From Lentisphaeria bacterium (lineage in GTDB: Bacteria; Verrucomicrobiota; Lentisphaeria; Oligosphaerales; MVZH01), in the NCBI GenBank assembly GCA_032251435.1, contig JAVVEH010000036.1, forward strand, positions 1-44,343: a DNA stretch of 44,343 bases, read 5' to 3'. The notes under the pieces are model-generated. The model saw only the letters and a list, made by a program, of their open reading frames with translations, was not told the origin of the DNA and did no database searches. This document shows positions 8,954 to 44,343 of this stretch, one piece after another (within the stretch, counting starts at the first letter, position 1; each line of letters opens with the position of its first letter). The position numbers and the translations under genes were made by a program.

Positions 8954-9186
8954 CATGATCCCAGGGTTGAGGCAACCCCGGGCTACATGACATAACGCCC
9001 TTGGCGTAAAACTTGGACCGATTTCTGTCTGTCCGCCTTTATCCCGCCGCAGGCTGGGGAAGACATGACGCCCGGGTCGGGCGGCTCCAACGACCCCGCG
9101 ACGACTGATGCCTGCGGGGCGCGCAAGGCGCTTCAACGACTTCCACGACTTCAACGACTTCCAACGATTTCAACGACTTCAAACGC
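8954..9186. repeat. direct repeat copy A flanking the ATPase islet (hairpin head + conserved about 150 bp + 9-bp tandem array)
   Basis: CATGATCCCAGGGTTGAGGCAACCCCGGGCTACATGACATAACGCCCTTGGCGTAAAACTTGGACCGATTTCTGTCTGTCCGCCTTTATCCCGCCGCAGGC...GGCTCCAACGACCCCGC is nearly identical to 10846-11000. It ends in about 6 units of CTTCAACGA-type 9-mers (9131-9186). Confidence 0.75.
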
Positions 9187-9268
9187 TTTTTCAGATTGAT
9201 AAATTCTTAAAATACTGTATTTTAGGAATTAGACTGTCTTAAATATCAGTTTTTAACGAGGTCTCATC

Positions 9269-10423
9269 ATGTTTCAGCGATTGCTCGCCCTGGATACAGG
9301 CGCCAGTTCGTTTCTTTTCGGTCCCCGGGGCACCGGGAAATCATATTGGCTGCATCATATCCATGCCGACGCTCTGTGCATCGACCTGCTGGAGTCCGAC
9401 ACATACACCCAGTTGCTGGCGGATCCTTCCCGCCTCCGGAATCTCGTTCCTCCCCACGTGAACCTGGTTGTCATTGACGAAGTGCAGCGGGTGCCTGATC
9501 TTCTGCATGAGGTCCACCGGCTTATCGAGCGGCAGGGGACACGCTTCATCCTGACCGGTTCGAGCGCCCGTAAGCTCCGTCGGCCCTCATCCGATCTTCT
9601 GGCTGGACGGGCCTTGCTGAACACCATGCATCCATTGGTGCCGGAGGAGCTTGGCGAGGCCTTCGATATGGCAAAGGCCCTGCGGGTCGGTCTACTTCCG
9701 GCGCTTTACGACCCGAAGCGGGGGGGGCTTGTCGCCGAGCATTATCTGTCCTCTTATGTTCAGGCGTATCTGCGGGAAGAAGTACTACAAGAAGGACTGA
9801 CCCGTAATCTGGCGGCCTTTTCGCGTTTTCTAGAGGCGGCGAGTTTTTCCCAGGGTAACGTCCTTAATATGGCTGAAGTCGCCCGTGAATGCGCGGTGGG
9901 AAGCAAAGTCGTCGCCAGCTATTTTGACATTCTTGAAGATTTGCTCATCGGTGTCCGCCTGCCCGCGTTCACCCGCCGGGCTCGGCGGCGGGTCGTGCAG
10001 CATCCAAAATTCTATTTTTTCGATTGCGGGGTCTACAGAACCATCCGCCCGAGAGGGCCGTTGGACACCCCCGAGGAAACAGACGGGGCGGCCCTCGAAA
10101 CCCTGGTTTTTCAAGTAATCCGGGCGACCGTGGATGCCCTGCGGCTACCCTTTTCACTTTACTTCTGGCGGACGGTGTCCGGCGCGGAAGTTGATTTTGT
10201 CCTTTACGGAGAAGGAGGGCTGATTGCTATTGAGGTCAAACGGAAACGGACGCTGGGGGGCAACGACTTGGCCGGGCTGAAATCATTCAAGGATGAATAC
10301 CCCATGGCCCGCTGCGTCGTTTTGGCAAATACAGCCCGACGGGAAGCCATTGGCCCGATCGAGGTCATCCCGATCGGAGACGCTCTGGCACATCTCCGCG
10401 AAATTCTCGTGCCAGTTCAATAG
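9269..10423 (+). CDS. AAA+ superfamily ATPase, COG1373-like (AAA_14 + DUF4143-type C-terminal domain)
   Basis: 384 aa. P-loop FGPRGTGKSYWL near the N-terminus, Walker B LVVIDEVQR, C-terminal region typical of DUF4143 ATPases. AT-rich 80-bp upstream leader contrasts with the surrounding GC-rich DNA. Confidence 0.85.
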   Translation: MFQRLLALDTGASSFLFGPRGTGKSYWLHHIHADALCIDLLESDTYTQLLADPSRLRNLVPPHVNLVVIDEVQRVPDLLHEVHRLIERQGTRFILTGSSARKLRRPSSDLLAGRALLNTMHPLVPEELGEAFDMAKALRVGLLPALYDPKRGGLVAEHYLSSYVQAYLREEVLQEGLTRNLAAFSRFLEAASFSQGNVLNMAEVARECAVGSKVVASYFDILEDLLIGVRLPAFTRRARRRVVQHPKFYFFDCGVYRTIRPRGPLDTPEETDGAALETLVFQVIRATVDALRLPFSLYFWRTVSGAEVDFVLYGEGGLIAIEVKRKRTLGGNDLAGLKSFKDEYPMARCVVLANTARREAIGPIEVIPIGDALAHLREILVPVQ

Positions 10424-10442
10424 GGGGCTTCAGCCCTGAAAT

Positions 10443-10500
10443 CCCCCCACATTTCGAACATTACCCATTTTTCGGCAATGTCCGAAAAGTGGGGGGGGGG
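10443..10500. terminator. long imperfect hairpin ending in G10 homopolymer, just 3' of the ATPase gene
   Basis: CCCCCCACATTTCGAACATTACCCA / TTCGGCAATGTCCGAAAAGTGGGGGGGGGG form a roughly 25-bp imperfect stem with a tiny loop. G10 run at 10491-10500, C6 run at 10443-10448. Confidence 0.4.
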
Positions 10501-10545
10501 ATGAGAAATGTGTGTCTTTTTAACCCCAAGGGGGTGGAATGAAAT

Positions 10546-10777
10546 AGGGGGCTGTCCCAGAATATACGAAAACGTGTTTTCCATAGCCCTGGAAGGGCGG
10601 CATCATCGTAGCCCCGAGCTCCGTGCCCGGGCTGAAAGATCAATGACTAATGTGTCCCTCCAGGACACATAAATCATTTTTCCGAGTCCCCAGGCTTCAC
10701 CTGGGGCTACGTTGAATTTGCCCCTCCGGGGCGCAAAGCTGTCTCCGCATCCATTTCTGGGACAGCCCCCTATATCC
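10546..10777. repeat. TIR-bounded small element (MITE-like), copy 1
   Basis: Perfect 18-bp inverted termini TAGGGGGCTGTCCCAGAA (10546-10563) and TTCTGGGACAGCCCCCTA (10757-10774). The interior is full of short GC hairpins (TGTGTCCCTCCAGGACACA, CCCCAGGCTTCACCTGGGG, GCCCCTCCGGGGC). The terminal core GGCTGTCCCRGAA is shared with 16472-16617. Confidence 0.55.
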
Positions 10778-10845
10778 CGTCGCCCCGGTGGGGCTAAAAA
10801 TGCGCATGACCCAGGCCGACAGGAAAAGGCCAAGTTAAAAACTGT

Positions 10846-11140
10846 CATGATCCAGGGTTGAGGCAACCCCGGGCTACATGACATAACGCCCTTGGCGTAA
10901 AACTTGGACCGATTTCTGTCTGTCCGCCTTTATCCCGCCGCAGGCAGGGGAGACATGACGCCCGGGTCGGGCGGCTCCAACGACCCCGCAGACAGCAGTC
11001 GTCGCGGAGCGCGCAAGGCGCTTCAACGATTTCAACGATTTCAACGATTTCAACGATTTCAACGATTTCAACGACTTCAACGATTTCAACGATTTCAACG
11101 ATTTCAACGTCTTTAACGTCTTTAACGTCTTTAACGCCTT
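10846..11140. repeat. direct repeat copy B flanking the ATPase islet (same unit as 8954-9186) with expanded 9-bp tandem array
   Basis: About 150 bp nearly identical to copy A (single-base indels only), followed by about 13 units of CTTCAACGA/TTTCAACGA/TCTTTAACG 9-mers (11021-11140). The array abuts the stop codon of the downstream aldo/keto reductase gene. Confidence 0.75.
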
Positions 11141-12259
11141 TTACGCCTTCAATGCTTCATGGGCTTCCCGGAGGCGTTCCCGAACGGGAAAATTCTGGGG
11201 GCATTTTGTCTCACAAGCGCCGCAATCCACACAGGCATCCGCCTGTTTTGCAGGACTATTCGGATTTTTTCCAATCCGCTGATAGGCATTCTTACTGGAT
11301 TCCCACAGTCCGTAAATCCGGGCTTTGTTATACAAATCGAAAATCCGGGCGATGGGGATATTCTGGGGACATGGCATACAATACTGACAGCCCGTGCAAT
11401 ACAAGTCCGCCATTTTTTTGAGTTTTTCCAAATGCGCCTCAATCGCCTCCTGGTCCGCGTCGGAGAGCGGCTCGGGGTCCGCGCATGTGCGGAGATTGTC
11501 AATCACCTGTTCCATGGTGCTCATGCCGGACAACGCGACATCGACATTTGGGTTCGCCAAGACGAAACGCATAGCCAGTTCCGGCACCGGGGTCCGGTGT
11601 GACAACGCGTCTTGCAACGCCTCGCTGGGCTCGCCTAACCGTCCGCCGCCGACGGGTCCCATGACCACCACGCCCATCCCCTTGGCTTTCGCATGGGCGA
11701 TTCCCTCTTCCATTTGGCGGTCGAGCATATTGTACTGCACCGTCACAGATTCATAAAATCCCGTGTCCACCAACTTGATCAACGCGTCATTGTTGTCATG
11801 AAACGAGGTGCAGATATGACGAATCATTCCCTGCTCTTTCGCCTTCATCAGCCATTTTGACACATGCGGCTCAACCCGCTCGCAATAGTTTTTCCAATTC
11901 ACGCCGTGGGTGTTGTAGATATCGATATAATCCGTTCCCAACCGTTCCAGACTATTCTCCAGATGGGTCCACCATTGTTTCTCGTCATCATAGCAGTGGT
12001 TTTTTGTGGAGACGACAATTTTATCCCGCCAGCCCTTCAAGGCCTCCCCCACCACACGTTGACTGTCTTGATGGCAATATCCCACCGCGGTGTCGATATA
12101 GGTCATCCCATTTTCAAACGCCTTATGGATCATGGGAATCGCCAAGTCGCGGTTAATGTGTTTTTCCCCGTCATCTCCATCCACCATAGGCAGGCGCATA
12201 GCGCCGAAACCCAACCGTGAAACCCTTAATCCTGTCCGCCCGAGTATACTGTAGCGCAT
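11141..12259 (-). CDS. aldo/keto reductase with C-terminal 4Fe-4S ferredoxin domain
   Basis: 372 aa. N-terminus MRYSILGRTGLRVSRLGFGAMRL is typical of AKR family members. C-terminal Cys motifs CTGCQYCMPCPQ and CVDCGACETKCPQ indicate an Fe-S cluster domain. Confidence 0.85.
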   Translation of the reverse strand: MRYSILGRTGLRVSRLGFGAMRLPMVDGDDGEKHINRDLAIPMIHKAFENGMTYIDTAVGYCHQDSQRVVGEALKGWRDKIVVSTKNHCYDDEKQWWTHLENSLERLGTDYIDIYNTHGVNWKNYCERVEPHVSKWLMKAKEQGMIRHICTSFHDNNDALIKLVDTGFYESVTVQYNMLDRQMEEGIAHAKAKGMGVVVMGPVGGGRLGEPSEALQDALSHRTPVPELAMRFVLANPNVDVALSGMSTMEQVIDNLRTCADPEPLSDADQEAIEAHLEKLKKMADLYCTGCQYCMPCPQNIPIARIFDLYNKARIYGLWESSKNAYQRIGKNPNSPAKQADACVDCGACETKCPQNFPVRERLREAHEALKA

Positions 12260-14914: not shown

Positions 14915-16180
14915 TCAAACAGCGGTGATGTCAAGATCGAATCCAAACCGGCCCAGGTCTTTCCCCCATCCGCGGATATCGCGGCTCAAAGATCCGCGCC
15001 AGACACCGGGACGGATCTCCGCCAATTGAATCTGCCCGCCCGTCACCCCTCGTTCCCGGGCCGCCACCCCTTCCGGCAACAGGGACACCGCCCCGTCAAA
15101 CTGAAATAAAACCAGGGTTTCAGGGCTGAATTGAGTGATCAAGTCGCCATAACTCCGACCAGTCTTTTCGATGACGCTGGCCGCTTGCTTCATCTCCGGA
15201 TCCAGGCTGCCGACGAATTGGGAACCCGCCCGGATCAAATCCACAACGGGTTCCAAAAGAGCCTGATCGGGTTGCAGGCTGAAACTCAATGTCAGAGGAA
15301 TCACTCGCCGGTCCATGGTTTTAGCCGAAGCGATCCGGAACAATTCGCACGTATCCCAATGCACGGTGTCGGGCAACGATTTAACCGGCAGCGCCACGCC
15401 ATTCCGGTGACGGCCGCTGGCGGCGCTAAAGACCCATCGCGTTATCCTCTTTTTCATCCGCAACCAGTCCTGAACCGTGTATGCCTGTCGTTGATACCCC
15501 TTTCCGGTCACCCGCCCGCGCCGGATGGAAATCTTTTTTTCCGTCCATTCAAACCAAGGCTTGTTTATCCTCACCCCCACCATGCTATGGGTGTCTCTCA
15601 CGCCAAAATCTTCCACCGTCAAGACCACCCGGGCCAGCGGTTGATCGGCCGCGCCGCCCAAGGTGAGCTCTATCGTCGCCGCATGATCGAAGGGGGCTTC
15701 AACCACGGTAAATCCAACAGCTTCGTCATCATCATCCGCGCATTTCGCCAGGACGGCTAAAAACGCTCCGACCGCCCGGGAACCATATTCAGCCGGATCC
15801 ACACCCGCCGTACCGAGCACTTTCGCCGCGGCATCCGCGAACTGACTCCCCTTAAGCATCGCGTCACGCGCTTTTTTATCCGACTCCACCACCCGTATGG
15901 CGACGGGCAACGGGCCGGGACAGGGGCCGAGGAAAGCGATCTGATCGGCGCCGGAAACATCCACGCTCCCGGTGCCGGAGTAAGGAAACAAACTGGATTG
16001 TCCGGCGATGGACAGACTGATGAATCCTTCCCGTCTCCCGGTTAAATCCTTTGATCTGAACTGGCGGGTGTCCACCCGCATGGATGTCACCGACACCGCC
16101 ACCAGGTGTTTGCGGCTGATCGCGCCCCCGGAACTTCGGACAATCGCTTGGATTTGGCCTGCCAAAGAGAGTCGTTTCAT
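14915..16180 (-). CDS. conserved hypothetical protein (421 aa), upstream of cstA
   Basis: Long ORF with non-repetitive, soluble-looking composition. No motif I can assign. Same strand as cstA, 94 bp gap. Confidence 0.55.
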   Translation of the reverse strand: MKRLSLAGQIQAIVRSSGGAISRKHLVAVSVTSMRVDTRQFRSKDLTGRREGFISLSIAGQSSLFPYSGTGSVDVSGADQIAFLGPCPGPLPVAIRVVESDKKARDAMLKGSQFADAAAKVLGTAGVDPAEYGSRAVGAFLAVLAKCADDDDEAVGFTVVEAPFDHAATIELTLGGAADQPLARVVLTVEDFGVRDTHSMVGVRINKPWFEWTEKKISIRRGRVTGKGYQRQAYTVQDWLRMKKRITRWVFSAASGRHRNGVALPVKSLPDTVHWDTCELFRIASAKTMDRRVIPLTLSFSLQPDQALLEPVVDLIRAGSQFVGSLDPEMKQAASVIEKTGRSYGDLITQFSPETLVLFQFDGAVSLLPEGVAARERGVTGGQIQLAEIRPGVWRGSLSRDIRGWGKDLGRFGFDLDITAV

Positions 16181-16304: not shown

Positions 16305-16368
16305 TTAAGGCGAATGATTAGGAAAAAAGATTAAGGTTATGCGGATTTACCCTAATCATTCGCCTTAA
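16305..16368. promoter_or_regulatory. perfect 18-bp stem hairpin / palindromic operator-like site in divergent intergenic region
   Basis: TTAAGGCGAATGATTAGG (16305-16322) and CCTAATCATTCGCCTTAA (16351-16368) are exact reverse complements separated by 28 nt. The stretch is AT-rich relative to its surroundings. It lies between the divergent hypothetical 421-aa gene and queE. Confidence 0.5.
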
Positions 16369-16471: not shown

Positions 16472-16617
16472 ATCGGGCTGTCCCGGAAATGCCGGGGTCG
16501 CGATTTTTTGCAACTCCAGGGGCGCCCTCCATGTGGAGGGCTCCGCGTGCGGGACACCCGCGGCCACATCAACGCCCCCGAAACGAGGGAGAAAAAGTAT
16601 TTCCGGGACAGCCCGAT
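16472..16617. repeat. TIR-bounded small element (MITE-like), copy 2, in queE 5' leader
   Basis: Perfect 19-bp inverted termini ATCGGGCTGTCCCGGAAAT (16472-16490) and ATTTCCGGGACAGCCCGAT (16599-16617) flank 108 bp containing the hairpin GCGCCCTCCATGTGGAGGGCTCCGC. It ends about 118 nt upstream of the queE start. Confidence 0.55.
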
Positions 16618-28421: not shown

Positions 28422-28991
28422 ATGAGCAAGCTGTTCGACCAGGCGCGAGCCCGGCTCAGGAATAGTATTGACGATAAGGAGGAGGCCAAAACCGCACGGG
28501 GAGACGGTCCCGCCGACGTGAGCCAGGTCGCGAAAGACATACAGGAAGCGGCCGCGGAGGCGGTTGACAATGTGGTGGCGAGCCCTTTCCGTTTAAAAAA
28601 GGCGCTTCAGCAACGCGCCACTAAAAAGGTTTTGGAAACCCAGGAGAAATTCACGGACCTTCTCCCCGCCTTGGCCCAGGCTGGATTCCGGCTTGATTCA
28701 TGCGCTATTGACGCCAGTATGTCGCCGACCATCATGTCCCGTTTTTCAGTCACCCGACAGCTCACTGATGAAGAGGAAGAAGAATTCCTGGCTGCCAACC
28801 GGGGAAACCGGTTTGCCTATCTCCTCTTTGAAAGTCTTTTCCGAGCGGTCAACGTAGCCGAAACCCTGGATTTCCCGGGTTTACATTTCGCCGGTCTGGA
28901 GGTCCGTGTCACCGCCAGCCCAAAAGTAAGCATGCTCTACCGGAGCGTCCAGGTCCAGGAATTGGGCCAAACAGTCATCCACGGAGGTTGA
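28422..28991 (+). CDS. hypothetical acidic protein, first gene of the PspA locus
   Basis: 189 aa, no TM segment, EEEEE stretch, no recognisable motif. Ends 4 bp before pspA-like gene on the same strand. Confidence 0.55.
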   Translation: MSKLFDQARARLRNSIDDKEEAKTARGDGPADVSQVAKDIQEAAAEAVDNVVASPFRLKKALQQRATKKVLETQEKFTDLLPALAQAGFRLDSCAIDASMSPTIMSRFSVTRQLTDEEEEEFLAANRGNRFAYLLFESLFRAVNVAETLDFPGLHFAGLEVRVTASPKVSMLYRSVQVQELGQTVIHGG

Positions 28992-28994
28992 AAA

Positions 28995-29666
28995 ATGGGA
29001 AAACTAGCAAGAGCGATCAGTAATTGGTTCAAAGACAAACACGATCAAATGGCTGGACTTTTCACGGATCCCGAACGGGACACCAAAATCGCCATCGAGG
29101 ATAGTAAGCGGCTCGTTGAGGCGTTCACCGAAAAAGTGGCCCGCCTGATGGCGGAGACCAAAAAGCTCAAAAAACTTCTGGTGGACGCCGAAGCGGATGT
29201 GGAAAAATGGCGCGGGATCGCCGTCAAAGCCGCCGAAGCCCGGGACGAGGGAGATGCCCGCACCGCCCTCACCCGTAAGGCCGCCGCCGTGAAAAGAGTT
29301 GAAACGCTTGAAGCCGAAGTCGCTCAGAACGAAGAAGTGACTGAAAAACTCCGCGCTCAGATCGCCGACACCAAAGCCCGGATTGACCAGGCCGAAGCCG
29401 ACCGCGCGCGTTTAGTGGCCCGCTTGGAAGGAACCCAAATCCGCAAAGACGCCGCGAAAGCCGGGGCTAACTTTGGGGATACCAGCAATCCTCTGGCCGC
29501 TCTGGATGACCTGGAACGGGCCGTCAAGAACAGCGAGGCCGAAGCCGAAGCCTGGGAAGAACTTCTCGGCGAAGACAGTGAGGGCGAGGTCCTGGAGACA
29601 AAATACAACACGGAGAATGACGCTATCGAAGCCGAGTTGGCAGAACTCATGAAGGGGAAAAAGTGA
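28995..29666 (+). CDS. pspA: PspA/IM30 (Vipp1/ESCRT-III-like) family protein
   Basis: 223 aa, almost entirely coiled-coil. N-terminus MGKLARAISNWFKDKHDQMAGLFTDPER and the E/A/R/K-rich heptad pattern match the PspA/LiaH/Vipp1 family. Confidence 0.85.
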   Translation: MGKLARAISNWFKDKHDQMAGLFTDPERDTKIAIEDSKRLVEAFTEKVARLMAETKKLKKLLVDAEADVEKWRGIAVKAAEARDEGDARTALTRKAAAVKRVETLEAEVAQNEEVTEKLRAQIADTKARIDQAEADRARLVARLEGTQIRKDAAKAGANFGDTSNPLAALDDLERAVKNSEAEAEAWEELLGEDSEGEVLETKYNTENDAIEAELAELMKGKK

Positions 29667-29714
29667 ATCCGGCGAAAGCCCTGCCACATGTCCTGACGCG
29701 GAAACAGGTTTAAT

Positions 29715-30398
29715 ATGGAATTTCTTCATACGATATTTTCCGGCCCGATGCTGGTCTACAGCGTCTCGCTCTGCTTGATGTTGCTTTACTGGCTGATCAT
29801 TCTGATTGGCTTGATCGATATCGAGTCACTGGATGCTGTTTTCGGTTTTGGTGACGCTTTGGAGGGCGCGGGAGAAGTGGCGGGAGAAGCGGCCGCGGAA
29901 TCCGCGGGGGACGCGTTGGCTGGCGCGGCGGCGCCTGGCCCTCTGGAAGCGGTGCTCGGATTCATCGGCATCGGGACCGTTCCGGTAACCATTGTCGGCA
30001 GCATTCTGATTATCACCATGTGGTTTCTGGCTTTCTGCCTGTATTATTTTGTGTCGCCGGTCGTGACGCACCTGGCCCCCCCCCTGATAATCACCCTGTG
30101 CTTTTTTCTGCTCTCGGCCTTTGGCAGTTACTTCACCACGGGGTTGCTGACGCGCCCGCTGCGGAAAGTTTTCACGGTTGTCAGCACCCATGCCGGTTAT
30201 CACCTGGTGGGACGGACCTGCAAAATTCGCAGCAGCGAAGTGACCGAAATGTTTGGTGAGGCTGAATTGATGGTGAAGGATTCATTCATCATCATTTCGG
30301 TCCGTTGCGATGAGGAGAATAATCTGAAAAAAGGCGAAGAGGCTGTGATTATTGACTATCAAAAAGAAACCCACCTATACGACGTGCGAAAACTTTAA
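29715..30398 (+). CDS. YqiJ/NfeD-like inner-membrane protein (DUF1449-type) with C-terminal OB-fold
   Basis: 227 aa. Two hydrophobic helices, a Gly/Ala/Glu-rich linker, and a C-terminal beta-rich segment (LVGRTCKIRSSEVTEMFGEAELMVKDSFIIISV) resembling the NfeD/YqiJ beta-barrel. Located directly upstream of a flotillin gene, as in E. coli yqiJ-yqiK. Confidence 0.6.
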   Translation: MEFLHTIFSGPMLVYSVSLCLMLLYWLIILIGLIDIESLDAVFGFGDALEGAGEVAGEAAAESAGDALAGAAAPGPLEAVLGFIGIGTVPVTIVGSILIITMWFLAFCLYYFVSPVVTHLAPPLIITLCFFLLSAFGSYFTTGLLTRPLRKVFTVVSTHAGYHLVGRTCKIRSSEVTEMFGEAELMVKDSFIIISVRCDEENNLKKGEEAVIIDYQKETHLYDVRKL

Positions 30399-30461
30399 CA
30401 ACCGACCCCGACCGTTATCATTGAATCGACCGCGAACGAAGCGCTTAAAAACAGGAGAACG

Positions 30462-32504
30462 TTGCGCATGATCACTCCATTCATTCCCTTGGGAGCCCTG
30501 TCCATTCCAGAACCCCTTCTGGCCGTACTGATTGTCATCGGGTCACTCATCGTCATCGTCTTTGGCTTGATGATCCTGGCCGTCCAATTTTACCGCAAGG
30601 TGGAACAGGGGCAAGCCTTGATCCTGAATAAATTGCGTGACAAAGTTCAAGTCAGTTTCACGGGTGGCATTGTCCTGCCGATCATCCACAAAGCGGAAGT
30701 GATGGACATCTCCGTCCGGGCCATGGAAGTGGAGCGTTCCGGTAAAAACGGCTTGATTTGCGAAGACAACATGCGGGCGGACATCCGGGTGACTTTCTAC
30801 GTCCGGGTGAACAAAACCCAGGAAGATGTGCTCAAGGTCGCCCAGTCCGTCGGTTGCAAACGCGCGTCGACCAAGGAAACGCTGGAAGAACTCTTCCAGG
30901 CCAAATTCTCCGAAGCTCTGAAAACGGTGGGTAAGCAGATGGAGTTTACCACGCTGTTCACCGAACGGGAGAGATTTAAAGAACAGATCATTAAAGTCAT
31001 TGGTGAGGATTTGAACGGCTATCGCCTGGAAGACGCGGCCATTGACTATTTGGAACAGACCCCGTTGTCCTCTCTCGATGACTCCAATATCCTCGATGCC
31101 CAGGGGATTCGTAAAATTGTTGACTTGACCGCCCGCGAGGCCGTTCAGACCAATGATTTCCGCCGCAACCGCGAGAAAATCATCAAGGCCCAGGATGTGG
31201 AGGCCCGCGAAAAGATTCTGGAGCTGGAGCGCCAGCAGGCCGACGCCGAAGCCAGGCAGGCCCGCGAAATCGCCACCGTGCAAGCCCGCGAACAGGCCGA
31301 AGCGGAAAAAGTGGAAGCTGAAGAACGCCTGAAATCTGAAAGCGCCCGCATCGCCACCGACGAGGAACTGGCGGTCGCTGAGGAAAATAAACTCCGCCAG
31401 ATTGAAATTGCCGCCAAAGCCAAGGAGCGGACGATCGCGGTCGAAACCGAACGCGTCGAACGCGACCGGCAATTGGAAGCGGTCGAACGCGAACGGGCCG
31501 TGGCCATCAAGGACATGGAAAAGGCGAAACAGGTCGAAACAGAAAAGAAAGAAGTCGAAGATATCATCCGTGAACGCGTGATGGTCCAACGCACCGTGGC
31601 CGAAGAAGAAGAGAAGATCAAAGACACCCGCGAAATCATGACCGCCGAGCGGGAACGCAAGCGGCAGGTGATCGAAGCCGAACGGGAAGCCGAACAGGAA
31701 CGCGTCAAAGAAGTCGTGGCCGCCAAGGCTAAAGAAGAGGCCGCTGAAAGCCTGTTCGCCGAAATGGTCAAAATGGCCGAAGCCGAACGGGTTAAATCCG
31801 AAAACATCAGCGAAGCCAAAAAAGTGTTGGCTGAAGGGGTCATCGCCGAGGAATCCGCTTTGGGCTTAGCTCAAGTCAAGGTTAAAGAGGGCGAGGCGCG
31901 TGCCATTGAACTGACCGGGAAAGCGGAAGCTCTGGCTCAGACGGAAAAACACAAAGCCACCGCGTTCGGTCTGGAAGCCGAAGGCGAATCTGAAGCTAAA
32001 GCCATGGCCGCCAAGTTCCATGCGGAAGCCGAAGGCATCAACGAAAAAGCCGCCGCCATGAAGGAATTTGACGGGGTCGGCCGCGAACATGAAGAGTTCA
32101 AACTGGAACTCAATAAGGCCAAAGAAATTGAGCTGGCCGCCATCGATGTCCAGCGCAAGGTCGCCGAATACCAGGCTGATGTCCTCGCCGAAGCCATGAA
32201 ACAGGCGGACATCGACATCGTCGGCGGCGACGGAAAATTCCTGGAAACCTTTTTCCGCTCCATCAGCCTAGCCAAGAGTGTTGATGGATTTGTTGACAAG
32301 AGCAAAGAAGCCACCAAACTGGTGGCAGGCGACAGCGCTAACATCATGACCAAGCTGTCCAACGTTCTGGCCGATAGCGGGATCAGCAGCGAAGATGTGA
32401 AAAATCTGAGCATGTCTCAGATGTTAAACAAACTCAGCAAAACTGAAAATCCTGACACCGCCAAACGGCTCGAAGAGATCATCGGCTGGCTGGCGGAACA
32501 ATAA
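30462..32504 (+). CDS. flotillin (SPFH/Band-7) family protein, YqiK/FloA-like
   Basis: 680 aa. N-terminal membrane anchor, SPFH domain (QALILNKLRDKVQVSFTGGIVLPIIHKAEVMDISVRAMEV), then a very long E/A/R/K-rich coiled-coil typical of bacterial flotillins. Confidence 0.9.
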   Translation: MRMITPFIPLGALSIPEPLLAVLIVIGSLIVIVFGLMILAVQFYRKVEQGQALILNKLRDKVQVSFTGGIVLPIIHKAEVMDISVRAMEVERSGKNGLICEDNMRADIRVTFYVRVNKTQEDVLKVAQSVGCKRASTKETLEELFQAKFSEALKTVGKQMEFTTLFTERERFKEQIIKVIGEDLNGYRLEDAAIDYLEQTPLSSLDDSNILDAQGIRKIVDLTAREAVQTNDFRRNREKIIKAQDVEAREKILELERQQADAEARQAREIATVQAREQAEAEKVEAEERLKSESARIATDEELAVAEENKLRQIEIAAKAKERTIAVETERVERDRQLEAVERERAVAIKDMEKAKQVETEKKEVEDIIRERVMVQRTVAEEEEKIKDTREIMTAERERKRQVIEAEREAEQERVKEVVAAKAKEEAAESLFAEMVKMAEAERVKSENISEAKKVLAEGVIAEESALGLAQVKVKEGEARAIELTGKAEALAQTEKHKATAFGLEAEGESEAKAMAAKFHAEAEGINEKAAAMKEFDGVGREHEEFKLELNKAKEIELAAIDVQRKVAEYQADVLAEAMKQADIDIVGGDGKFLETFFRSISLAKSVDGFVDKSKEATKLVAGDSANIMTKLSNVLADSGISSEDVKNLSMSQMLNKLSKTENPDTAKRLEEIIGWLAEQ

Positions 32505-32633
32505 CACGAACAGGCCAAAGCCTGAACCGCGCGCCTGACGAAAAGTATTGCTGACGGCAAAGCCTCATACGGGGCGAGCCGCTTCGGCGCATGCGCATTG
32601 GACACCTGACAAAACCGCGGATTTTTTGATCCT

Positions 32634-35600
32634 ATGCCCGACGAAAAAAACACAACTCACCCGGACGAACTGACGAACACCGCGGGAACCGCGGTGGAGG
32701 AGAAACTGGAGGGGGGGGCTTACGAGGTGCTGCGCAAGCGTATTGAAGCGCTTGACGGCAAACTCTGCGCGGCGCTGGCAAGCCTGAACGGGCGCCGTAA
32801 AGATATCTTCGGCAGTCACGAGAGCAAGCTGATTGGCACCCAGCGGGTCACCACCGACAACAACTGCGTTCCCCGTGACATTGTCGCTGTCGATGGACAC
32901 ATGCTGTTCGGCTATAATGTGTTCATCGGGCTGAAAACCGAGACAGTGGTCGAGGACGTGCTTTGTCTGATGAAATTCGACGGGGAGCAATTCGGGGCTT
33001 CGGAGCTTCCGCTTCTCGACACTCCCGCCTTTCGCCGGGACTTCCAGGAACTTTACAAATACTATCGCGACGCCCGGTTTCTCCAGTTCGTGAAAACGGA
33101 ATCACGCCTGTTGGTCATCTTCCAGATTGGCCGGTCGGTCACCGATGTGAAAATTTTCCGCTGGCAGGTCGAGAAAGGTGGAGGATTTAAATACATTGAT
33201 GACCGCGGGGATATGGAGTACAAGCTGCCGCCCCAGCATGATTTTGAATGGACAGCCGCCACCCGCGACAATCAGGTGCAAGGCGCCCACCCCCATTTTT
33301 CCATTCTCGACCAGCTGTTTGTGGAATGCATCGGCGGGACACTGACCATTAAAATAGAAAACAACACCAAAACCGGAGAGGGGATTTTCAATGAACCCGT
33401 CGACAACCCCGATCAGACCCTGGACGACGCCGAAATCTATTACGCCGAAGTCGGCCCGTTAATTCTGCTCAAAGTTAAACCTTACCGGGAAGAAAAATAC
33501 CGCTACATCGTCTACAACAGCCGTTTGCAGACGGCCATCCGCATCGACGCCATTGACCAAGCCTGTATTGAACTGCCGGAAGATCACGGCATCATCTTCC
33601 CCCGTGGCTATTATCTCATCGATGGACGTTCCCGGGTCTTTGACGAAAAAGTGGACAACATGCGCTATCTCCAGTGCAAAAAAAGTCCCAACGGTGAGGA
33701 CTTTCTCTACGTGTTCTATCATGAGGAACAGGGCCTGCACATCCTGCTTCAGTACAACATGATTTCCAAGGAACTGTCCACGCCGATCACCTGCCATGGG
33801 TGTTCTCTGTTCAAAGACGGTCGCATGATCGTCTTCAACGCCCCCGATAACGAACCGCGGCGGAACCACCCCATGCAGCTGTGGAAGACACCCTTTTACA
33901 GCGATGATTACGAAGCTCCTGTCACCAGTGATTCCCCCTTGGCCCGAATCGGCAACCGGGATTTAGTCCGCGGCATTTCCGAAGGATATGGAATTTCCCG
34001 GCTGATCAACAGTGACATCATCACTCTGGATGTTTACGCGGACTTGCTGAAATCCACCACCAATCTGCTGGACGGCTACCACTGGATCAATGAACCTGAG
34101 TGCGGAGATCTTAAGACCATTGTCCAAGAGATTAATCAGACGGCGGTGGCCGCCATCGACGAATTCGAAAAAGTCGTGCGGATGAAAGAAAACACCGCCA
34201 AGCGGATCGAAGAGAGTCGGCAGGCCGTGCATCGGGCCATGTTGGATCTACGTCCGGATCAGATGCACGACATCAATGACTTTGTCAACGCGATCAGCGA
34301 ATACCGCGCACGCCGCGGGATTGTCATCGGCCTGCGTGACTTGCGTTACGCGGACATGGCCCTGATTGACGAAATGGATACTCAGCTGGCCCGAGGAACC
34401 CAGGACATTTCTGAGGCGTGTGTCGAATTCCTGCTCAAGCCGGATTCCCTCAAACCATACAGTGAAAAAAATGCCGACTTAGATAAAAAAATCGCGGCCG
34501 TCAACAAAGTCGCCGATCTTGAAAAACTCGCTGGGGAACTGGAAAAATTAGCCGTCCAACTGGACCTGCTGACCGATGTCGTCGGCAATCTGAACATTGA
34601 CGACGCCACCAAAACCACCCGCATTGTCGAAGCCATCACCGATGTCTACGCGGGGGTCAACCGCACCCGTTCCATGACCCGCAACCGCCGACTGGATATT
34701 GGCCGGGAGGAAGCGGAAGCTGAATTCGCCGCGCAATTCAAACTCCTCTCCCAAAGCATCACCAACTACATTGGCATGTGCGATAGCGCCGCCAAATGTG
34801 ATGAGCTCCTGACCAAGATCATGGTCAGCATCGAGGAACTGGAAGGGCGATTCGCTGATTATGAGGAATTCACTCTGCAAATCGGGGAAAAACGCGAAGA
34901 GGCTTACAACGCCTTCGCCGACCGCAAACAGGTCCTGGAGGACAGCCAGAAAAAACGGGTCACCTCTCTAGCCAGTTCCGCGGAGCGGATCCTCAAGGGC
35001 GTTGTCGCCCGGTCGGGAACCTTCAAGGATGTTGACTCCATTAACGCCTACTTCGCCAGCGACTTGATGGTCTCGAAACTGCGTGATGTCACCCGGCAGC
35101 TCTACGACATGGGTGAGTCAGTCAAAGCCGATGAACTCAATGGCAAACTGAAAACCGCGAAAGAAACCGCCGTCCGCGGACTCCGCGACAAGCTGGAACT
35201 GTTCACCGACGGCATGGACATTATCACATTCGGGGACTACTCGTTCTCCGTCAACACGCAACCTCTTGAGTTGACCACTCTCCACCGGGATGGCGACATG
35301 TTTTTCCATCTTACCGGAACCAGCTTCTACGAAAAAATCACGGACCCGGAGTTTCTCGCCACCCGCGCCATCTGGCGGCAGGAACTGATCAGCGAAAACC
35401 GGAATGTCTACCGGGCGGAATATCTCGCGTATCAGGCCTTGGAAGCCGCCTTGAACCATACCGGCGACTTTTCCATGGATGACCTCCGGAAAGCCGCGGG
35501 ACACGTTAAAGATCTAGGCACACTGGTTCGGGATTTTGCCGCTCCCCGTTATAACGAAGGCTACGACAAAGGCATTCATGACCATGACGCCACTCTCATC

Positions 35601-37826
35601 CTCAACGAACTGATCCGCTTCTACGACTCCACCGAACTGCTGCGTTATGACTCCACCAGCCGGGCTCACGCCATTATTTTCTGGCGCTACTACGGCAATC
35701 AAGCGCATCGCCACATTCTCCGCAACCGTATGCGCAGTTTCGGCTCTTTGCCCCGCGTCTTCGGCTGTTCCGCCATCCGCCGGGATTACATCGACGAAAT
35801 CCGCGCCGCCATGTGTGTCTTCTTCGAGGCGTTTGGACGGGTTATCGACCCGGCAGTTCTCAGCCAGGCCGCCGAATTTCTCTATTATGAACTCCAGGAT
35901 GCCGACGAGCTCGAATTCACCATCAACGCCCTTGCCTATGACCTGCACAAGCAATTCATGAGCTACCTGAAAACAAAAAAAGCTGAAAAGGCTTTCCTGC
36001 AGGACATTGACGAACTGTGCTCCGACTACATCAGTCGGATCAATTTGATCCACGACTGGGTCTCGGCTTTCGTGAAACAAAGCGGGAACGACCCTTCAGA
36101 ACACTTCATCTGGGAAGTCGTGGCCTTGATCTCCTCCGGCGAAGTCATCAACCACGATGTCACCTCGGTCGGCACGTACGTTGAGATAAAGGGCCTGTTA
36201 GGGCAGCATCACTTGGTGCGGGACAACCGGCTGGATCTCCACTTCGATCTGTTCCTGCTGAAGATGAAAGAGTTCGTTTCCGTTCAGGTCCCCAAATTCG
36301 AAGCCTTCACGCGTCTGCGCAAACAGCTGATCGACCGCCGCCGCGAGGAAATCCGCCTGGCCGAATTCCTGCCCCGGGTCATGGGCGGCTTTGTCCGAAA
36401 CAAACTGATCAGCGAGGTGTATCTGAATCTTGTCGGCGCGAACTTCGCGAAACAACTTGGTGTCATCGGCGACGCCCGTCGGACCGACCAGATGGGCCTG
36501 CTTCTACTTATTTCCCCGCCGGGATATGGCAAAACCACGCTCATGGAATATGTCGCCAACCGCCTGGGCCTCGCCTTTATGAAAATCAACGGGCCGGCTA
36601 TCGGCCATTCCGTCACCAGCCTGGATCCGGTCGAAGCCCCGAACGCCACCGCCCGTGAGGAACTCCAAAAGCTCAACCTGTCCCTGGAAATGGGCAATAA
36701 TGTGATGATCTATCTGGATGATATTCAGCACTGCCATTCCGAATTCCTCCAGAAATTTATCTCGCTCTGCGACGCCCAGCGGAAAATTGAAGGGGTCTAT
36801 CGCGGGAAAACCCGAACCTACGACCTGCGCGGGCGCAAAGTCGCTGTCGTCATGGCCGGCAACCCCTACACCGAATCCGGAGAGAAATTCCGCATCCCCG
36901 ACATGCTCGCCAACCGCGCCGACACCTACAACCTCGGCGACATCAGCTCCTCATCCAGAGACGCCTTTGAGCTGTCCTTTATCGAAAACAGCATGACCAG
37001 CAATCCCGTTCTCTCCAAAGTGGCCACCCGTGGGCATGCCGACATCTATAAATTCGCCGAGGCCGTCCGGCGGAATTCCACCGAAGGCATTGAATTTGAA
37101 CACAATTATTCCGCCGAAGAGGTAAACGAAACCCTTAATGTCCTCCGCAAACTTTTCATGGTGCGCGACACCGTCCTGAAAATGAACCGCCAGTACATCG
37201 ACTCCGCCGCCCAGCAGGATGAATACCGCGCCGAACCCCCGTTTAAACTCCAGGGTTCCTATCGCAACATGAACCGGATGGCCGAGAAAGTCTATCCTAT
37301 CATGACCGATGAGGAAGTCAACCAACTGATCATCGATCACTACACCAACGAAGCGCAAACCCTGACCACAGGAGCGGAGGCCAACCTGCTCAAATTCAGT
37401 GAAATTCTCGGGATACTCACGCCCGAACAGACTGACCGCTGGCAGCGAATCCGCGATGAATTCCAACGGCGGCAGACATTGGGCGGGGTCGACAATGACG
37501 ACCAACTGGCCCAGCTCATGGCCCAGCTCTCCACCTTGGGTGTCGGTGTCAAGAACATCACAGCCGCGATCGCCGCCCGCCCGGACATTGACCTGTCCCC
37601 ACTGGTCAAAGCCCTCCAGGCCGCAGGTAAAAAGCCATCACCCATCCAGGTCAACGCCCAGTTCCCGCCGGAATATGCCGAAGCCTGGGCGCGTCAGAGC
37701 CAGTCACACGATCAGCTGGCCGAAATCCTTAACGGCATGCGCCAGCGTAGCGACGACTTTGTCAAGCTCGGGGATCTTCTGGATGATATCATCCATGGAA
37801 AAGTGACCTTGCAGATCACAAAATAA
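32634..37826 (+). CDS. giant (1730 aa) protein with single MoxR/AAA_5-like AAA+ ATPase module near the C-terminus; N-terminal about 1200 aa of unknown function
   Basis: Uninterrupted 5.2-kb ORF. Walker A LLLISPPGYGKTTL, Walker B MIYLDDIQH, and the MoxR-like sensor/arginine-finger region VMAGNPYTESGEKFRIPDMLANRADTYNL. Nothing recognisable before about residue 1200. No TM segments obvious. Confidence 0.85.
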   Translation: MPDEKNTTHPDELTNTAGTAVEEKLEGGAYEVLRKRIEALDGKLCAALASLNGRRKDIFGSHESKLIGTQRVTTDNNCVPRDIVAVDGHMLFGYNVFIGLKTETVVEDVLCLMKFDGEQFGASELPLLDTPAFRRDFQELYKYYRDARFLQFVKTESRLLVIFQIGRSVTDVKIFRWQVEKGGGFKYIDDRGDMEYKLPPQHDFEWTAATRDNQVQGAHPHFSILDQLFVECIGGTLTIKIENNTKTGEGIFNEPVDNPDQTLDDAEIYYAEVGPLILLKVKPYREEKYRYIVYNSRLQTAIRIDAIDQACIELPEDHGIIFPRGYYLIDGRSRVFDEKVDNMRYLQCKKSPNGEDFLYVFYHEEQGLHILLQYNMISKELSTPITCHGCSLFKDGRMIVFNAPDNEPRRNHPMQLWKTPFYSDDYEAPVTSDSPLARIGNRDLVRGISEGYGISRLINSDIITLDVYADLLKSTTNLLDGYHWINEPECGDLKTIVQEINQTAVAAIDEFEKVVRMKENTAKRIEESRQAVHRAMLDLRPDQMHDINDFVNAISEYRARRGIVIGLRDLRYADMALIDEMDTQLARGTQDISEACVEFLLKPDSLKPYSEKNADLDKKIAAVNKVADLEKLAGELEKLAVQLDLLTDVVGNLNIDDATKTTRIVEAITDVYAGVNRTRSMTRNRRLDIGREEAEAEFAAQFKLLSQSITNYIGMCDSAAKCDELLTKIMVSIEELEGRFADYEEFTLQIGEKREEAYNAFADRKQVLEDSQKKRVTSLASSAERILKGVVARSGTFKDVDSINAYFASDLMVSKLRDVTRQLYDMGESVKADELNGKLKTAKETAVRGLRDKLELFTDGMDIITFGDYSFSVNTQPLELTTLHRDGDMFFHLTGTSFYEKITDPEFLATRAIWRQELISENRNVYRAEYLAYQALEAALNHTGDFSMDDLRKAAGHVKDLGTLVRDFAAPRYNEGYDKGIHDHDATLILNELIRFYDSTELLRYDSTSRAHAIIFWRYYGNQAHRHILRNRMRSFGSLPRVFGCSAIRRDYIDEIRAAMCVFFEAFGRVIDPAVLSQAAEFLYYELQDADELEFTINALAYDLHKQFMSYLKTKKAEKAFLQDIDELCSDYISRINLIHDWVSAFVKQSGNDPSEHFIWEVVALISSGEVINHDVTSVGTYVEIKGLLGQHHLVRDNRLDLHFDLFLLKMKEFVSVQVPKFEAFTRLRKQLIDRRREEIRLAEFLPRVMGGFVRNKLISEVYLNLVGANFAKQLGVIGDARRTDQMGLLLLISPPGYGKTTLMEYVANRLGLAFMKINGPAIGHSVTSLDPVEAPNATAREELQKLNLSLEMGNNVMIYLDDIQHCHSEFLQKFISLCDAQRKIEGVYRGKTRTYDLRGRKVAVVMAGNPYTESGEKFRIPDMLANRADTYNLGDISSSSRDAFELSFIENSMTSNPVLSKVATRGHADIYKFAEAVRRNSTEGIEFEHNYSAEEVNETLNVLRKLFMVRDTVLKMNRQYIDSAAQQDEYRAEPPFKLQGSYRNMNRMAEKVYPIMTDEEVNQLIIDHYTNEAQTLTTGAEANLLKFSEILGILTPEQTDRWQRIRDEFQRRQTLGGVDNDDQLAQLMAQLSTLGVGVKNITAAIAARPDIDLSPLVKALQAAGKKPSPIQVNAQFPPEYAEAWARQSQSHDQLAEILNGMRQRSDDFVKLGDLLDDIIHGKVTLQITK

Positions 37827-38077
37827 TCCCCTTGCTAAGAAGACTGTTTTGCGACGCCGCCCTCGACAGGTGATTGTTGGCTTCCGTCTTCGGTCTGCCT
37901 CGTTGTCGTAATCGTTCTCGTAATCGATTGCCTTCTTCCTCGCTATCCGTATTTACCGAGGGCCGATCTCGATTAGGACAACGACAACCGTTCTCACGCT
38001 ATGCGGGATCACTGACAAGGACAACAAGCGGGTTCGGCCGCGCGGTCAGGCGCTCAGATCATCGATCAGGCGACAGG

Positions 38078-38560
38078 TTATTCATAGACCATGACCGTCA
38101 CTGTTTGCCGGCCCCATTTCACGGCGTCCCCGTGGCGGGGAAAGAAAACATCCAGCCGCCGCGGCCCCTTAATATCTCTCCCGCGGTCCCGGACAACAAC
38201 ATCCCCGTAGCCAGGCACATGCAGACGCGTGCCAAAGGGATAATACGCGGTGTCCGCGGCGGCGACACCTTTTTTGGCCCGACTGCCGTCGGCGCAAACG
38301 CCCACCTCCTTCCGCTCTCCTTTACGCGGTCCGGAGACATGAACCGGTTTCCCCAGCCACGTCCGCCGCCAGCCGCAGCATGTCCCGCAGGAACAATAAG
38401 CGGTCACCTCCATCCGGACCGGCCGTCCCCCTCCATCTGTGCCGGCGCAGCCGTTCAGAAACACAGTCAACCCCGCGGGCATCAGAACAAGAACACAGCG
38501 GCGGAAGAAAACCGTCCATTCACGTGATTCCAGCGTCGGAGAAACCATGCGGTCGTCCAC
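38078..38560 (-). CDS. 3D-domain lipoprotein (MltA-like lytic transglycosylase domain)
   Basis: Lipobox LTVFLNGCAG after a signal peptide. 3D-domain block VTAYCSCGTCCG...VAADTAYYPFGTRLHVPGYGDVVVRDRGRDIKG...LDVFF with the three conserved Asp. True start may be the second Met (38548). Confidence 0.75.
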   Translation of the reverse strand: MDDRMVSPTLESREWTVFFRRCVLVLMPAGLTVFLNGCAGTDGGGRPVRMEVTAYCSCGTCCGWRRTWLGKPVHVSGPRKGERKEVGVCADGSRAKKGVAAADTAYYPFGTRLHVPGYGDVVVRDRGRDIKGPRRLDVFFPRHGDAVKWGRQTVTVMVYE

Positions 38561-38605: not shown

Positions 38606-38647
38606 GTGACTCGTGACTCGTGACTCGTGACGCGTGACGCGTGAGTC
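38606..38647. repeat. heptanucleotide tandem repeat (GTGACTC x3, GTGACGC x2, GTGAGTC x1)
   Basis: Six contiguous 7-bp units read directly from the sequence. Located between the pilT stop and the start of the 3D-domain lipoprotein gene, i.e. in the latter's promoter region. Confidence 0.85.
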
Positions 38648-38662
38648 GTGGCCTGAACGTCG

Positions 38663-44107: not shown

Positions 44108-44216
44108 TAAATGATAAAGGTGATAAAGAGCAGATAAAGGGACAGATAAAGGGACAGGTTGTTTATAGATTGCATGATAAAGGTGATAAAGGGACAGGTT
44201 GTTTATAGATTGCATG
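44105..44216. repeat. cluster of GATAAAG heptamer repeats plus a 32-bp exact direct duplication
   Basis: GATAAAG/GATAAAT occurs 7 times. GATAAAGGGACAGGTTGTTTATAGATTGCATG occurs at 44145-44176 and again at 44185-44216, separated by ATAAAGGT. Confidence 0.8.
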
Positions 44217-44343
44217 TGAAAAATCATGGGGTATGGTAAGGGAACAGTCTCAGAATCGTGGATTGTTTTATCGGTCTCAAGGAAAAAGAAGTGAAAAGAC
44301 GTGCGGAGGTGACATGATGCGGGCGGCCCGTATGCGTTATGAT

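Follow-up and report, generated by a model that had tools for sequence, protein, structure and literature searches.

Small palindromic repeats of non-coding DNA are common in bacteria. Doublets of repetitive extragenic palindromes (REPs), termed REPINs (Bertels and Rainey, 2011), reportedly form hairpins and are said to be mobilized by REP-associated tyrosine transposases (RAYTs). RAYT-like genes flanked by terminal inverted repeats have been described as TIRtrons or TIRYT (Di Nocera et al., 2013, PMC3733652) and correspond to subclass 2.1 of Quentin et al. (2018, PMC6006769). Their repeats often share the motif GGGGWSAS and, in some genomes, form moderately abundant families that occur as singles, dimers and clusters (PMC3733652; PMC6006769). 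Among bacterial miniature transposable elements with inverted repeats (MITEs) are Correia/NEMIS of Neisseria, Nezha and RUP (PMC3733652). In the present work we describe two elements, designated E1 and E2, in a window that is the entire 44,343-bp contig JAVVEH010000036.1 of a Lentisphaeria metagenome-assembled genome (MAG). Both bear the same inverted arms around unrelated interiors, and we compare them with the systems above. Tentatively, they are read as inverted dimers of a repeat of the tyrosine-transposase type.

Arms and interiors of E1 and E2

Sequence reading and an inverted-repeat scan placed E1 at 10545-10772 (228 nt), with 18-nt perfect arms and a 192-nt interior, and E2 at 16472-16617 (146 nt), with 19-nt perfect arms and a 108-nt interior (Table 1). 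An earlier sequence-only reading of this DNA had proposed two loci with perfect inverted ends of 18-19 nt and a common core, which agrees with the arms found here, as do its limits and interior length for E2. E1 is equally real, with its limits corrected from 10546-10777 and a 196-nt interior to the values given above. The stretch common to the arms of both elements is 14 nt long (GGGCTGTCCCRGAA). The 44 kb contain its 13-nt core GGCTGTCCCRGAA without mismatch exactly four times, each time in an arm of E1 or E2, and the paired-arm pattern was obtained in 0 of 100 shuffles. No further copy, even a degenerate one, was detected in the window besides the four arms, either with the core at two mismatches, with short-word blastn or with GGGNNTGTCCC. 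The relation of the two loci through their ends, and not by chance, is supported. Each arm can form a mini stem of 3-4 bp at most, GGG(G)-CTG-(T)CCC; the arms carry neither a GTAG nor a CGTC tag and are not themselves tagged REP palindromes. Open reading frames (ORFs) that overlap E1 or E2 are short and unsupported only. It is secure that E1 and E2 form one family of small non-coding, hairpin-forming repeat elements. Their arrangement is already known in kind; it is an ordinary bacterial repeat, here in a little-studied phylum, and it introduces no new principle.

Concerning the interiors, no sequence similarity between those of E1 and E2 was detectable. The claim that they differ and are packed with hairpins containing CCCTCC stands insofar as they are unrelated, hairpin-rich and locally enriched in this hexamer (4 occurrences in the 374 nt of E1 and E2 vs. 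19 in the whole window). CCCTCC is not a positional motif, because it is placed differently in different hairpins. The E1 interior is a long imperfect palindrome with nested hairpins and a central stem-loop at 10650-10670. It also harbors an inverted pair of GTAGCCCC-tagged stems, at 10608-10615 (+) and 10703-10710 (-), which is absent from E2. As these stems have the form of classical GTAG REPs (for example GTAGCCCCAGGTGAAGCCTGGGGAC on the minus strand), E1 may combine two repeat types in a nested composite. Compared with shuffled sequences, the RNA folds reached z = -8.5 for E1 and z = -6.9 for E2, and the DNA folds z = -8.0 and z = -4.6, respectively. In these folds (z from -4.6 to -8.5) the arms close one long stem. 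Rfam gave no match in the window at gathering thresholds, and the E1 and E2 regions searched at an E-value of 5 returned chance-level matches only (E-value of 0.2 or worse).

Three other known kinds of site were ruled out by inspection. The arms lack the TAAG inner end and the 5-bp duplication of Tn3-type ends, integron attC sites would need RYYYAAC/GTTRRRY cores or cassettes, which are missing, and there is no TGGCAC-N5-TTGC of a sigma-54 promoter. Tn3-derived miniature elements (TIMEs) have 38-bp ends of the form GGGG...TAAG and 5-bp target duplications, whereas perfect complementarity in E1 and E2 ends at 18-19 nt and the 5-nt flanks of E1 are unequal.

Table 1. Coordinates of E1, E2 and their neighboring genes in the window.
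Feature	Position	Strand	Remark
DUF4143/AAA_14 ATPase gene	9269-10423	+	3' end faces E1
E1 left arm, TAGGGGGCTGTCCCAGAA	10545-10562		perfect reverse complement of 10755-10772; core GGGCTGTCCCAGAA at 10549-10562
E1 interior, 192 nt	10563-10754		inverted-repeat scan, folds
E1 right arm, TTCTGGGACAGCCCCCTA	10755-10772		reverse complement of left arm
Aldo/keto reductase-ferredoxin gene	11141-12259	-	3' end faces E1
421-aa gene of unknown function	14915-16180	-	divergent neighbor of E2
E2 left arm, ATCGGGCTGTCCCGGAAAT	16472-16490		inverted-repeat scan, 19 nt, 100% complementary
E2 interior, 108 nt	16491-16598		several separate GC-rich hairpins
E2 right arm, ATTTCCGGGACAGCCCGAT	16599-16617		reverse complement of left arm
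queE	start 16735	+	other neighbor of E2

A third member and other matches in public collections

A scan of metagenome contigs for paired 13-nt cores with a gap of 101-161 nt led to 24 loci. One locus, seen twice in JGI metagenome contigs (L125 and L146), is accepted on its sequence as a third member of the family, in another organism. Its arms CGGGGCTGTCCCGGAAATCC and CGGGGCTGTCCCAGAAATGC, summarized as CGGGGCTGTCCCRGAAAT, match those of E1 and E2 beyond the 13 nt that the scan demanded. The interior is unrelated to those of E1 and E2 and contains a 25-bp perfect stem (DNA fold z = -10.9). The element has convergent FGE-sulfatase and sulfatase genes on either side, in DNA of 59% GC, and this gene content is suggestive of a host of the Planctomycetes-Verrucomicrobia-Chlamydiae (PVC) type. 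The bases outside the core differ among the members, yet they are complementary within each (TAGG/CCTA in E1, ATC/GAT in E2, CG/CG in the third member), and the R/Y position of the arms is A-T in E1 and G-C in E2.

The flanks were compared for target-site duplications, a check that the sequence-only reading had proposed. TA flanks E1 on both sides; it is ambiguous as a duplication because it also belongs to the E1 palindrome. The 5-nt flanks of E1 read AAATA/TATAT when TA is counted as flank and TGAAA/TATCC when it is counted in the arm. E2 is flanked by AT/AT or CA/CA, and the flanks of the third member contain no direct repeat. Across the three members no duplication of common length or sequence was found.

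The remaining metagenome loci are unrelated to the family. Assembly JAAUYA01 accounts for 21 of the 24, all of one AT-rich family with TNA flanks, and a further locus is an actinobacterial-type element of 75% GC. The JAAUYA01 elements (L124, L126-L144, L147) measure 133-186 nt at 36-42% GC, with ends GGGCTGTCCCAGAAAAAAAACTATAGG and 3-bp TNA/TWA flanks. PIF/Harbinger- or IS5-type MITEs show this pattern, and the source of the JAAUYA01 elements is possibly a eukaryote in that metagenome.

A second scan, of 596 Gb of genome contigs with 11-nt cores and a gap of 81-141 nt, gave at least 120 loci, and the window's own genome was not among the matches listed. Among the matches listed, about 95 loci are a uniform 160-bp Streptomyces element (e.g., L024:1770-1929). 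Its ends read TA followed by AGGGCTGTCCCGTAATCCCTGG..., or, written with both flanks, cTA before AGGGCTGTCCCGTAATCC... and TAg after the opposite end, with CTAA/TTAG (TA) flanks. It is also present in 75 Streptomyces or Embleya plasmids, in up to 13 places per record, and looks like an abundant MITE. It resembles E1 and E2 in the first 10 nt of the arm (GGGCTGTCCC), in its inverted ends and in its small size. It differs from them in its conserved length and interior, its TA flanks, its very many copies in one genus, and the arm beyond the 10-mer (GTAATCC vs. RGAAAT in E1 and E2). The shared 10-mer is no evidence of common descent, because the search demanded it. About 25 scattered matches from many phyla, among those listed, were likewise rejected as evidence of homology. 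Such collections are expected to hold about 10^8 inverted repeats, of which tens to hundreds would contain any chosen 10-13-mer, so these matches are not read as one family. Viral contigs gave no paired-arm match, and their single-arm matches fall in coding DNA. BLAST of plasmids with E1 gave no match, and the core searched as text in the literature returned irrelevant human and primer sequences only.

One of the genome loci, in a Legionellaceae MAG (L093:4425-4570), is a 114-nt element with GGGCTGTCCC arms and the same 14-nt direct repeat (tagcgtcttgtcca) on both sides, which is unusually long for a target duplication.

Comparison with relatives

E1 lies in the intergenic region between two convergent genes (Table 1). 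The Logan contig L001 is syntenic with the window over four genes at 79% nucleotide identity, and E1 is absent from it: 55 nt separate the reductase stop codon from a shared hairpin in L001, vs. 662 nt in the window. Apart from E1, the extra spacer material of the window consists of a 9-bp tandem array and one copy of a 230-nt duplication. After removal of E1 with one TA kept, the window junction tatatttcatt compares with tatattcatt in L001, a marginal agreement that 4.6% of shuffles equal and only a hint of a clean empty site. Two neighboring hairpins are kept in L001. The first (10441-10498, 86% identity) lies just past the stop codon of the DUF4143 gene, and the second (16305-16368, 83% identity), with 23-nt arms, in what is presumed to be the leader of the 421-aa gene. 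The pair may represent a terminator and a leader structure. Since E1 is missing from the L001 spacer while these two hairpins persist, it is not conserved.

Concerning E2, it is flanked by two promoter-like matches that point outward in divergent directions, and it lies upstream of the predicted queE transcript, outside it. Hairpin-plus-T-run matches are located at both of its ends, facing inward. L001 ends about 30 nt short of the E2 position. Among more distant relatives (QueE 66-71% identical), five contigs have queA before queE with only 48-150 nt between the two, an arrangement that offers no true empty site for E2. No E2-like element was found upstream of queE in these five contigs, and the queuosine operon therefore does not have E2 as a conserved regulatory element.

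A closer relative, L148 (QueE 71% identical), has two genes for RAYTs of 149 and 153 aa next to queH and tgt (L148:1-2000). Both genes are flanked by GTAG-type REPs, CTGTAGGTGCGGGCGYTGACCGCGCC and, on the other strand, GTAGGGCGGGTCACCTGACCCGCC. These REPs (CTGTAGGTGCGGGCG...) are absent from the window. Because this relative bears RAYT genes with REPs of their own, the lineage of the window hosts Y1 systems.

The duplication mentioned above consists of two direct copies, about 230 nt long and more than 95% identical, at 8960-9190 and 10851-11080. At 9131-9185 and 11021-11149 the copies pass into 9-bp tandem arrays (CTTCAACGA / TTCAACGAT) with up to about 13 units. The two copies bracket the DUF4143 ATPase gene, the conserved hairpin and E1, and copy B is described as starting within a few nucleotides of the right end of E1. 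The repeat contains a possible small ORF (ATG at 10955, MTPGSGGSNDP...QRFQRF...) and a GTAG-tagged stem (GTAGCCCGGGGTTGCCTCAACCC, minus strand). L001 holds merely 16 nt of it.

Repeats flanking a Y1 transposase gene

A lead toward a possible enzyme was provided by L117, a contig of a Pseudomonadota MAG. The stop codon of a 227-aa Y1 gene there is followed after 45 nt by a 116-nt hairpin whose arms contain GGGGGCTGTCCCA; one direct copy of that gene's own flanking repeat GGGAGTGTCCCTAAT lies on each side of the hairpin. The protein matches Pfam Y1_Tnp and scores 76.5 bits with the NCBIfam model for REP-associated tyrosine transposases, just below the 80-bit cut-off. It belongs to a very conserved family of 226 aa in Geobacter, Desulfuromonadales and Thermodesulfobacteriota. 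The representative library gave 36,895 clusters for the Y1 family, and none of ten cluster names looked up was PVC-labelled. In five of five loci (L117, L149, L152, L157 and L158; members at least 68% identical), which were reached via the protein and not via the DNA pattern, the gene lies between inverted copies of (A)AAT[AT]GGGG(G)[AG]GTGTCCC[GT]A[AG]T. In Desulfuromonadales and Geobacter the inverted repeats beside this IS200-like/RAYT-like gene are given by AAATAGGGGGAGTGTCCCGAAT, and such an organization is the one published as TIRtron/TIRYT. The right repeat overlaps the stop codon and encodes the last residues of the protein (...GECP before the stop). The repeats of L158 (GAAATAGGGGGAGTGTCCCGAATGG) and L157 (GAAATAGGGGGGTGTCCC) closely resemble the E1 arms GAAATAGGGGGCTGTCCCAGAAT and ATATAGGGGGCTGTCCCAGAAATGG. 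When aligned without gaps, with TGTCCC as anchor, to the gene-flanking repeats of the five loci, the arms of E1 scored 14/20 and 12/20 and ranked first and joint second of 52 sites from the window and its relatives; one control site also scored 12.

The Y1 gene with its repeats is located at L149:9890-10720, at L117:3800-4820 and around 9940-10700 in L152, L157 and L158. The repeats are of the AAATrGGGGAGTGTCCCTAAT type, sometimes with two tandem copies per side, and L158 has a spacer-less head-to-head dimer of the repeat (GGGACACTCCCAGGGAGTGTCCC) 1.5 kb downstream of the gene. Composite hairpins of 150-165 nt were also seen in Desulfuromonadales-like and Pseudomonadota MAGs (L056:1957-2104, L067:3316-3480, L092:7076-7230 and L117:4597-4760). 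Each of their arms carries two tandem motifs, GGGACTGTCCCC and GGGGGCTGTCCCA, about 10 nt apart. The hairpins of L067 and L092 are copies in inverted orientation, separated by 4.1 kb, and flank capsule genes.

Origin of the elements

These data suggest, at a probability of about 0.4, that E1 and E2 are non-autonomous inverted dimers of a repeat of the tyrosine-transposase type (TIRYT/RAYT-like), acted on in trans without target duplication. Each element would be an inverted pair of one unit of about 20 nt (consensus about ATnGGGGCTGTCCCRGAAAT) enclosing an unrelated, hairpin-rich spacer, and the unit would share its type with the inverted repeats on both sides of RAYT-like Y1 (HUH) tyrosine transposase genes. 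The arm would be recognized, possibly via a small GGGG-CTG-TCCC stem-loop in single-stranded DNA, by a Y1 transposase whose gene lies elsewhere in the genome. This enzyme would cut and rejoin the DNA without target-site duplication, and arms would be seeded or moved in this way. Once settled, the elements would remain as strong DNA or RNA stem-loops between genes and may incidentally act as transcription barriers or transcript-end stabilizers. Mobility, enzyme and single-strand mechanism are what we infer from these comparisons. It is likely that E1 and E2 are or were mobile, given that E1 is missing in a relative and that a third member occurs in another genome, and given the architecture. 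The three members have no flanking direct repeat in common, which fits elements of the HUH type better than those of the DDE type.

The suggestion of miniature or REP-like mobile elements in the sequence-only reading thus holds as far as non-coding, intergenic DNA with strong hairpins, the absence of E1 in a relative and the third member are concerned; the lack of a consistent duplication and the unrelated interiors do not fit it. The mobilizer it had named, IS200-like or RAYT, receives indirect support from the resemblance of the E1 arms to RAYT-like gene repeats and from a hairpin with an identical core beside one such gene, with no transposase on the contig.

Among the described systems, the repeats of TIRtrons share with our elements short G-rich units with a GGGG...-type core, an abundance that is moderate at most, and the lack of an evident target duplication. 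E1, E2 and the third member are inverted dimers in intergenic DNA, and the E1 arms align to the repeats flanking the 226-aa Y1 gene in L157 and L158 (GAAATAGGGGG.TGTCCC..GAAT). REPINs are alike in that two inverted short repeats yield one long hairpin that is intergenic and non-coding, lacks a target duplication and is presumed to depend on a Y1 transposase in trans. However, REP units are palindromes tagged GTAG or CGTC, unlike the E1 and E2 arms, and REPIN copies share their spacer, whereas those of E1 and E2 are unrelated. The window contains two elements in 44 kb.

Several observations weigh against the tyrosine-transposase origin. No transposase or integrase gene, and thus no TIRYT gene, is present within the 44-kb window, and the core has 0 copies in about 40 kb of relatives (L001, L148, L153-L156). 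In the anchored comparison, the arms of E2 and of the third member reached 6-9 of 20, which is background, and they have one base fewer before TGTCCC. The arms match the published GGGGWSAS at 7/8 positions at best (TGGGACAG / CGGGACAG), with no exact match. The 16 exact GGGGWSAS sites of the window (13.3 expected) are not an enrichment, and none of them lies in the arms. The orientation of the unit is also reversed, as the AAATAGGGG end points outward in E1 and E2 but faces the gene in TIRtrons. A 43%-identical Y1 homologue in a Sumerlaeia MAG lacks such repeats. Furthermore, matches of the L117 type came from a pattern that demanded GGGCTGTCCC, and in collections this large any given 10-13-mer should turn up in many inverted repeats that are unrelated. 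Finally, the spacers are long (108-192 nt) and unrelated; unrelated spacers would not be expected if an entire unit were copied, as in a REPIN, and they are unusual for a MITE or REPIN family. A variant that would explain why three members share their arms and nothing else is that the arms are the only heritable part. A tyrosine transposase would then place single units in inverted orientation around pre-existing hairpins (terminators or REPs), which would become clamped hairpins with arbitrary interiors, in an order that is inside-out relative to the ends of the transposase gene (right-end-like unit, spacer, left-end-like unit). We consider this variant quite improbable; if true, it would be a way of forming repeats distinct from the copying of a REPIN or MITE as a unit.

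Bacterial MITEs measure 70-300 bp, with terminal inverted repeats of 15-30 bp, and are non-coding, gene-adjacent and robustly structured. E1 and E2 could have arisen from a DDE-transposase insertion sequence whose ends are GGGGCTGTCCC..., either by deletion or by chance capture of DNA between two such ends, and be cut and pasted in trans; an IS630/Tc1-like element inserting at TA would be an example of the parent. The perfect terminal inverted repeats, the length of 146-228 nt, the non-coding and intergenic nature and the TA on both sides of E1 suit such an origin. Unrelated families bounded by terminal inverted repeats with a GGGCTGTCCC start and TA or TNA flanks do exist (the 160-bp Streptomyces element, L145 with TA before GGGGCTGTCCCAGAACC, and JAAUYA01). 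Nevertheless, we judge it unlikely. The TA of E1 is part of the palindrome, and E2 and the third member have neither TA nor a duplication in common with it. No DDE transposase was found on the contig, no full-length insertion sequence with these ends that could be the parent was found in about 1.1 Mb of fetched loci, and the interiors of the three members are not homologous.

Selection for structure without mobility offers a different account, in which the elements would be transcription barriers, terminators or transcript-end stabilizers, or a small structured RNA family with a conserved closing stem. The very stable folds, the position of E1 and the third member between convergent genes and the inward-facing hairpin-plus-T-run matches of E2 are consistent with it, and the arm bases that vary outside the core and at the R/Y position while staying paired look like compensatory change. 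Even so, this account is improbable in our view. Being full palindromes, the elements fold alike on both strands, which leaves neither strand marked as the gene. The interiors are unrelated, E2 lies outside the predicted queE transcript and is absent upstream of queE in the related contigs, and E1 is missing from the L001 spacer though its neighboring hairpins are conserved. A regulatory RNA family, which the sequence-only reading had offered as its alternative, is disfavored in particular, given the lack of any Rfam match even at an E-value of 5, the non-conservation of E2 at queE and the differing gene contexts of the members. Operator sites, with a regulator looping the DNA between two inverted arms, would account for a 14-nt motif in conserved inverted pairs and for the position of E2 between two divergent promoter-like sites. 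The spacing, however, varies from 108 to 192 nt, E1 and the third member lie at the 3' ends of convergent genes with nothing to regulate, the neighboring genes share no function, and no regulator gene is adjacent, which leaves this explanation with hardly any credibility.

If the link to tyrosine transposases is true, it would extend repeat families of the TIRYT/RAYT type to the Lentisphaeria/Kiritimatiellia branch of the PVC group and would provide a defined arm sequence for seeking the cognate enzyme and for tracking insertion polymorphism in MAGs. Apart from their origin, strong palindromes of this sort break assemblies, seed spurious ORFs (e.g., 10603-10884) and can alter the transcription of neighbors such as the queE-queC-queD operon.

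Genomic setting and other features of the window

By its gene content the window belongs to the core chromosome. It bears pheS, pheT, lnt, cstA, queE-queC-queD, queF, murE, ftsI, mraW and mraZ, together with genes for a lipid A acyltransferase and a large DUF3686 ATPase. Its QueE is MDT8391310.1 (100% identity), and the nearest relatives belong to Kiritimatiellales. No tRNA or tmRNA gene was found near E1 or E2, and no tRNA gene in the window. A cluster at 28422-38527 encodes a PspA/IM30 protein and several proteins without a Pfam match. The same cluster contains a 1730-aa protein that combines DUF3686 ("ATPase involved in DNA repair"), DUF7902 and an AAA domain and adjoins a gene for a T2SSE-type ATPase. 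Two further intergenic repeats were noted. The first is a 7-bp tandem repeat at 38606-38650 (GTGACTC, 6.4 units), and the second, near the contig end at 44122-44221, is a 37-nt direct repeat (GATAAAGGGACAGGTTGTTTATAGATTGCATG...) with 12-bp sub-repeats.

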